Assembly (NCBI GenBank): GCA_964016885.1
Contig: OZ024746.1
Coordinates: 7,502,001 to 7,566,000, forward strand
Origin: Eledone cirrhosa
Taxonomy: Eukaryota
Direction of reading: 5' to 3'
DNA: 64,000 bases
Positions within the stretch are counted from its first letter, which is position 1, and each line of letters opens with the position of its first letter. Shown piece after piece: positions 38,487 through 38,875 of the stretch. The position numbers and the translations under genes were made by a program. The notes under the pieces were generated by a model, which saw only the letters and a program-made list of their open reading frames with translations, was not told the DNA's origin and searched no databases.

Positions 38487-38875
38487 GAAAAACATGGGAA
38501 GAAAGAGGAATACTGCGTGGTTGCACATGGGTTACATATTATAAAATTAGTCCCTCATCAGTGATTTGCCAACCATCATTGGTATTTCATCGCATTAAAA
38601 ATCAGATACCTCAGGTTGGTGCGAGCAATAACTAAAATAAGCTATTGGGACAAGTGATTCGCGTAAAGCGAGTGAGATAAGTAAACAGCATAGAAGGAAA
38701 AGCAAACTGAAGGTAGGAAAACAGCAAGCAACATGATGGTTATCCGGTCAGCATAAACTGGGTGAATTTCATGAGCGGTCAGAAAACAGACCGTCCGCCG
38801 TGAATGAGGTGTGAGAAAGAAGGAACCCCACTACTAACGAATGGGAGGAAGTGAAAATGGGAGAAACAGAGTGAT
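38487..38875 (-). mobile_element. Divergent relative of the 55.6-56.4 kb element, in (TA)n
   Basis: The minus strand shares tcccaata.cttattttagttattg, gaggtat, taatgcga.gaaataccaatgatgg and actgatga.gga with 56218-56320. Confidence 0.7.

Follow-up and report, generated by a model that had tools for sequence, protein, structure and literature searches.

The non-LTR retrozymes reportedly described by Cervera and de la Pena in 2020 are among the known systems closest to the elements considered here. According to the accessible portion of a preprint, such retrozymes are short, non-coding units in tandem, each with one hammerhead, and they are regarded as non-autonomous derivatives of Penelope-like elements (PLEs) that form circles (bioRxiv 10.64898/2026.07.22.740005). 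The elements described below also consist of short non-coding tandem units with one hammerhead each, but the hammerheads of the retrozymes documented there are of type I and were found with type I descriptors, and surveys of this kind would therefore miss a core arranged in S-G-C order. The layout of the core has its counterpart in the type-SGC hammerhead, a non-circular permutation for which in vitro cleavage at the corresponding position has been shown (Eckert et al. 2023, PMC10085705). In the accessible parts of that report, SGC hammerheads are so far known only from metatranscriptomes and metagenome searches, and type CSG only from two metagenomic sequences. In some SGC RNAs the far end of stem III joins the stem I/II region, and it is not obvious how this arrangement would agree with the crystal structure. 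Cleavage during transcription has been published for SGC RNAs whose linker is 3 nt long.

Another point of reference is provided by the Naiads, a group of PLEs whose hallmarks, given together with those of other PLEs in section 6 of Craig et al. (2021, PMC8557442), match the anatomy of the elements examined here. In the portion of that paper available to us, Naiads are said to lack canonical hammerheads, eight 'half-core' and ten 'core' cases are flagged without explanation, and cephalopod Naiads are regarded as long inactive.

The window, a stretch of 64,000 nucleotides of DNA from Eledone cirrhosa, contains three copies of a structured RNA, all of them where the initial annotation had located them. 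Copy A (38550..38651, minus strand) is part of element A (38486..38873, minus strand), a 5'-truncated, non-autonomous member of family A with (TA)n on its flanks. Copies B (55680..55784) and C (56217..56321), both on the plus strand, lie in a family B element (55674..56394, plus strand) that forms a partial tandem of a 189-bp duplicated end and one 537-bp unit, with (TA)n at its end. Self-alignment adds to the latter insertion an inverted 5' piece at 55635..55675 (minus strand), which is an inversion of the Penelope type. An SGC descriptor matches the window at exactly three sites, namely copies A, B, and C, compared with 0.2 sites expected in block-shuffled windows. The folding energies of the single sequences are unremarkable (z of -1.6, +0.2, and -0.5), as expected because the fold is pseudoknotted, and support for an RNA structure comes from covariation and not from stability.

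All the nucleotides of the hammerhead core are present in this RNA in scrambled order. From 5' to 3', the cleavage-site block (S) is followed by the GAAA block (G) and the CUGAUGA block (C), which is the non-circular order that defines type SGC in the accessible text of Eckert et al. (2023). The inner part of a long helix corresponds to stem III, whose 3' strand starts at the last A of GAAA and whose 5' strand ends in a U with C or A as the next base (U16.1-H17). Stem I is formed by the six or seven bases that come after H17 and those just before CUGAUGA. In copy A (all positions on the minus strand), block S (38605..38610) runs from the 5' strand of stem III to U16.1 and then C17 (38605), and the 5' strand of stem I (38599..38604) pairs with 38562-38567. 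Block G (38581..38593) holds the 3' strand of a pseudoknot (38590-38593, partner 38621-38624), position 11.1 (38589), GAA (38586-38588), and the 3' strand of stem III (38581-38585). Block C (38550..38567) comprises the 3' strand of stem I, CUGAUGA (38555-38561), position 10.1 (38554), and the 3' strand of helix P1. By analogy with hammerheads, cleavage is predicted between 38605 and 38604 in copy A, 3' of A55728 in copy B, and 3' of A56265 in copy C, the latter two on the plus strand. Copy A is the most canonical of the three, with 6/6 pairs in stem I, 5/5 in stem III, and C17. Copy B has a single mismatch each in stem I, stem III, and hairpin P2, and a C.A apposition at 10.1-11.1, whereas copy C has 5/6 pairs in stem I, 5/5 in stem III, and U-A at 10.1-11.1.

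These assignments change part of the earlier picture. The closing helix (P1), the hairpin (P2), and the K-turn-flanked helix are as initially described, as is the pseudoknot, whose 5' strand is CCGC in copy C and UCGC in the other two, but stem I and the UH cleavage site had been missed. The expected GAAA had been thought to be replaced by CAAU, which is wrong, given that GAAA lies inside the supposed loop in all three copies (38588-38585, 55745-55748, and 56282-56285). A type II hammerhead with CAAU for GAAA was accordingly rejected, because GAAA lies elsewhere and stem I exists. Nor does it hold that the RNA fits no described class, since its block order is that of the type-SGC permutation as set out in the accessible part of PMC10085705, although its stem II is built differently. 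The suggestion of a variant ribozyme carried by a non-autonomous retroelement fared better, and it is supported.

The hammerhead assignment was evaluated in 78 distinct copies that were anchored on block G and CUGANGA, so that CUGANGA and GAAA are preset in these counts. At the free positions, H17 is not G in 77/78 copies, and A15.1-U16.1 is held in 75/78. Stem I, which adjoins H17 and CUGANGA, has at least 5/6 pairs in 76 of the 78 copies, and stem III, which adjoins GAA and the cleavage site, has at least 4/5 pairs in 74. Where H17 was left free in searches of the genome, it is A or C in 100 of the 100 matches listed. A direct stem II of several pairs, linking the strand that follows CUGANGA to the one that precedes GAAA, was not found in the 78 copies, where it amounts to zero or one pair. 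The apposition 10.1-11.1 is Watson-Crick or wobble in 51 of them (A-U 19, U-A 17, and G-U 15, the others being C.A 25, mostly in family B, and A.A 2), as it is in 7 of the 14 copies taken from more divergent families, and in an older family, termed F, it is mostly G-C (G10-C11) as judged by eye. The strand after the core pairs instead with the 5' end of the RNA (P1), and the strand before GAAA pairs with the segment just 3' of hairpin P2, which creates the pseudoknot. One 5' strand (38621..38651 in copy A, minus strand), consisting of the P1 5' strand, the P2 hairpin, and the pseudoknot 5' strand, would therefore splint both halves of stem II and stand in for most of it, and this arrangement recurs in Naiad consensus sequences read by eye.

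Like HRIMA-1 and its variants, as far as the available sections of PMC10085705 describe them, these RNAs have the S-G-C order, the core nucleotides, a pseudoknotted core, and a short linker that joins stem I to the strand preceding GAAA. In those RNAs, however, blocks C and G form a direct helix, whereas stem II is split and splinted here, and the term 'kink' has no match in the accessible Eckert supplement, in contrast to the K-turn in stem III described below. The Eckert alignments were compared by term search, and SGC variants there could share more features with the present RNA. We keep the RNA apart from plain membership in type SGC because the direct stem II that defines that type is not found. 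Judged by its sequence, it is a hammerhead in S-G-C order that is likely self-cleaving, and a new, likely catalytic hammerhead variant in an animal retroelement lineage.

The evidence for the fold comes mainly from an alignment of 32 natural copies, hand-chosen from the 78 distinct copies and a few extra loci, with truncated or deleted copies left out. Pairing is found in 92.5% of cells, compared with 81.4% after shuffling and 30-43% after sliding the strands, and 27 of 34 pairs display double changes, compared with 13.3 (shuffled) and 6-10 (slid), which is more than chance would give. Because the copies are related, these counts are inflated by kinship and the shuffle counts are not probabilities, but the slid controls fall far below the observed pairing despite this inflation. 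Covariation extends over stems I and III, the distal helix, P1, and P2. Stem I, whose pairing was derived from copy A alone, has double changes at 7/7 pairs; together with 10.1-11.1 it is paired in 87.9% of cells (72.3% shuffled, at most 59% slid). The 14 copies of more divergent families are 86.1% paired (66.1% shuffled), and stem III covaries there at 4/5 pairs. Within families A-E the pseudoknot is nearly invariant (2/4 pairs vary, in two cells each), and its covariation consequently rests on family F, locus L143, and Naiads read by eye. In family F, again judged by eye, P1, P2, the distal helix, and stem III have changed, stem I and the pseudoknot have done so in part, and the K-turn letters are kept in most copies. 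The ribozyme is better conserved between families than the element body in 12/12 comparisons (74-86% versus 61-75%). Family F corresponds to L111 and L113-L127, with 284 first-look candidates, and further old, divergent SGC/K-turn families are present in the genome (L129, L134, L140, and L143).

Stem III continues through a K-turn motif, with a 3-nt bulge and tandem GA, into a strongly covarying distal helix whose ends join the pseudoknot strand and stem I through about one nucleotide each. In copy A the predicted kinked extension occupies 38569..38619 (minus strand), with UGA at 38611-38613, the bulge plus GAU at 38575-38580, and a distal helix formed by 38614-38619 and 38569-38574. The standard sequence signature of a K-turn is found, in that a 3-nt bulge is followed by G.A and A.G between two helices. 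GA is present on the non-bulged strand in 67/78 copies and after the bulge in 72/78, with L3 being U in 77/78 and L2 being A in 78/78, although bulge-side counts are inflated because loci L061-L110 were chosen by patterns that include those letters. The K-turn geometry predicted from three copies is borne out at the sequence level. Family C has U instead of G2n and is thus without the G of the non-bulged GA. The pair U.U at 3b.3n, which is the identity of box C/D K-turns, is found in family A, including the C/D-type K-turn of copy A, and 3n is G in 37/78 copies.

K-turns bend a duplex to about 50 degrees, as stated in the accessible text of PMC5061560. The box C/D and U4 K-turns discussed in the available portion of McPhee et al. 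(2014, PMC4382518) likewise have a 3-nt bulge ending in U and tandem G.A/A.G, whereas the motif here is embedded in a ribozyme stem and has 3n=G in many copies. The same source indicates that box C/D K-turns need L7Ae, that those with 3n=G tend to fold in Mg2+ alone, and that GU-type pairs are also among the poor folders. By analogy with these 3b.3n and 3n rules, the dependence of the K-turn on protein may vary between families, and the predicted K-turn could possibly recruit a protein.

Element anatomy agrees with that of PLE derivatives. The host elements are non-coding, of Penelope type and about 500-630 bp long, and families A-E are homologous over the unit. Partial tandems, a 5' inversion, variable 5' truncation, a 30-40 bp tail, a microsatellite target, and the lack of an ORF mark them as non-autonomous PLEs. 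The (TA)n targets, partial tandems, 5' inversions, and tail are held in common with Naiads as described in the accessible part of PMC8557442, but the present elements are without an ORF, and no ORF running into the ribozyme was seen in the loci scanned. The RNA sits at the 3' end of the element, with fixed alternative ends that differ by about 40 nt (in family B 38 or 78 nt, and in A2 16 or 55 nt, beyond the core). (TA)n occurs within 130 nt in 122/137 matches, some of which were counted twice in overlapping loci. In the 3.0-Gb assembly, exact patterns have 6,174, 6,536, and 7,868 matches (controls 8, 0, and 0). A Naiad-like ribozyme pattern was not enriched (150 matches versus 165 in the control), and four of nine matches inspected are further degenerate SGC-type copies. 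Three contig runs of unrecorded kind contained nothing beyond many divergent copies and revealed neither start nor end sites.

A connection to Naiads is provided by the consensus sequences in the supplement to PMC8557442, of which about 35 of 54 records have a 3' region that is at least partly visible; these were read by eye, each record being named after the next header. The autonomous Naiad_Obim and Naiad_Ovul both have this RNA architecture about 75 nt from their 3' ends, sense to the RT ORF, with the same 8-nt P2 loop, K-turn letters, and core, while the pseudoknot, distal helix, stem III, and stem I are different yet complementary. The SGC order was also recognized in Esco, three Acropora records, Dst-4, Smim, Lpol, and a part-12 record (probably Plae), and the P1-P2-pseudoknot splint is clear in the Acropora, Dst-4, and part-12 records. 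Among the records viewed, the K-turn is present only in the two octopus Naiads, and coral and other Naiads have a bulge. CSG order was seen in Parc, Nbra-2, Nbra-3, Hpol, a part-15 record (probably Hcon), and Ptep. Seven of the eight 'HHR_half_core' Naiads, Dst-3 being the exception, are SGC or CSG permutations by eye. Omin, Adux, Sdum, Tama, and six bivalve records showed neither motif in those ends that are visible. It is possible, if doubtful, that Naiads across several animal phyla use SGC or CSG hammerheads, and that the addition of a C/D-type K-turn in the octopus lineage created a natural ribozyme that is activated by the host protein Snu13/15.5K.

No intact Naiad was found in this assembly when 150 of 7,497 protein-search candidates were scored, only decayed RT remnants, which are similar to the octopus consensus sequences in print. 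Matches to Naiad proteins were short or stop-ridden, one RT-motif pattern had no match, a second matched 19 places that are mostly decayed Naiad remnants, and no convincing ribozyme was found downstream of the decayed RT loci. The best 20 or so full-length matches of family A have about 90-97% identity, and family A copies thus look younger than these remnants. The long intact PLE ORFs that were seen belong to C-terminal endonuclease types, and CUGANGA does not occur in the 900 nt downstream of them. The recent copies may have been driven by a Naiad that escaped detection or by a different PLE clade. Elements of other PLE clades are abundant in the genome (L236-L243; L093, L102, L104, and L110; L077), and some have ORFs of about 780 aa with a GIY-YIG domain at the end, making them candidates for cross-mobilization.

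The reading that we favor, and consider probable, is that an S-G-C hammerhead at the 3' end of Penelope-type elements cleaves tandem transcripts in cis for the benefit of a Naiad-type reverse transcriptase. Self-cleavage would cut such transcripts into unit-length RNAs, which the reverse transcriptase, mobilizing them in trans with its endonuclease, would copy into (TA)n sites. Stem II would be rebuilt as a junction in which zero or one direct pair is joined by P1, P2, and the pseudoknot helix, with the 5' strand as the splint. Through the bend of the K-turn, the far end of the extended stem III would come back close enough to stems I and II to be connected by 1-nt linkers, and this folding back is what would make such short links feasible. 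Cleavage 3' of H17 would release a 537-nt monomer from the B/C tandem. Its ends would stay clamped by four helices, and ligation to a circle would be favored for that reason.

Several other explanations need to be weighed against cleavage in cis. The same chemistry might take place in a core formed between two copies, either tandem neighbors or a dimer, if the linkers of 1 nt and 3-4 nt are too short for a cis fold. Tandem copies are indeed frequent, at a spacing of 445-640 bp, and other Penelope-associated hammerheads reportedly cleave as dimers, according to work by Lunse et al. in 2017. We nevertheless find this unlikely, given the presence of a bend element where the cis fold needs one (the K-turn in octopus, the bulge in coral and other Naiads) and the cleavage of 3-nt-linker SGC RNAs during transcription noted above. 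Likewise, the near-invariant U at L3 of the C/D-like K-turn, the want of a normal stem II, and the C.A at 10.1-11.1 in most family B copies would suit a scaffold derived from a hammerhead, with little or no catalytic activity, that is retained because the reverse transcriptase of the retroelement or Snu13/15.5K binds to it. Such a scaffold is nonetheless quite improbable, because CUGANGA, GAAA, A15.1-U16.1, and a non-G H17 are kept across families and distant Naiads while the stems turn over, a pattern that fits selection on catalysis.

A repeat-borne element resembling a box C/D snoRNA or a SECIS can be considered on account of the CUGA and AUGAUG boxes in copy A, the SECIS elements present in some Naiads (accessible text of PMC8557442), and weak Rfam snoRNA matches (E 1.2-3.4). 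Those matches reach 17-22 bits against cut-offs of 65-85, and the window as a whole has no Rfam match at gathering thresholds, sub-threshold ones being found only near the copies. The D-like box lies 5' of the C-like box, and both a terminal C/D pair and an ORF are lacking. Here the bulged GA strand lies 3', the opposite of its orientation in SECIS elements. These candidates were rejected on the Rfam models, the terminal C/D boxes, and the SECIS orientation. The hammerhead stems covary as well, and stem I in particular largely refutes this reading, which we regard as extremely improbable. The literature search found no report of a permuted or K-turn hammerhead in PLEs or animal genomes, with subscription journals being under-covered.

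If the RNA cleaves, non-circular permutations would move from a curiosity of environmental data into animal genomes, in thousands of copies, and there would be an answer to why Naiads seem to lack the hammerhead that other PLEs have. The bend introduced by a K-turn or bulge would give a structural answer to the open question of SGC geometry, and the RNA would be an example of a hammerhead with a splinted stem II. It would also follow that ribozyme and retrozyme surveys based on type I-III descriptors overlook the whole set.

A number of additional observations were made along the way. Ordinary type I hammerheads occur in neighboring elements of the window, as had been noted at the outset. An inverted-repeat Penelope-type insertion at 38886-39267, directly upstream of element A with a (TA)n run between them, has type I cores at 39162 (plus) and 38991 (minus); their stem III is short and near-palindromic, and their stem II is enlarged and irregular. 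A second inverted-repeat insertion (34510-34780) has type I cores at 34700 (plus) and 34578 (minus) with a palindromic AU stem III. Unrelated fragments of non-LTR retrotransposons, with RT and C-terminal domain, lie at 59716-62258 and 44494-45838 on the minus or plus strand. The 3' end of the record before Naiad-2_Movir may resemble a twister ribozyme. That 3' end is found in File S5 of the PMC8557442 supplement, in whose visible parts the nematode Naiads (Parc, Nbra-2, Nbra-3, Hpol, and probably Hcon) and the spider record preceding Naiad_Lpol, all judged by eye, look like full hammerheads of type CSG, with an additional helix surrounding block C. Several bivalve Naiads and one hemichordate Naiad there have in common another, conserved 3' motif without a hammerhead core, possibly another structured RNA. 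A metagenome scan with a full-length Naiad protein as query confirmed none of 37 stretches. Two full-length Naiad-type proteins, P0002 and P0003, are 912-915 aa long and have an N-terminal GIY-YIG domain and a DKA motif.
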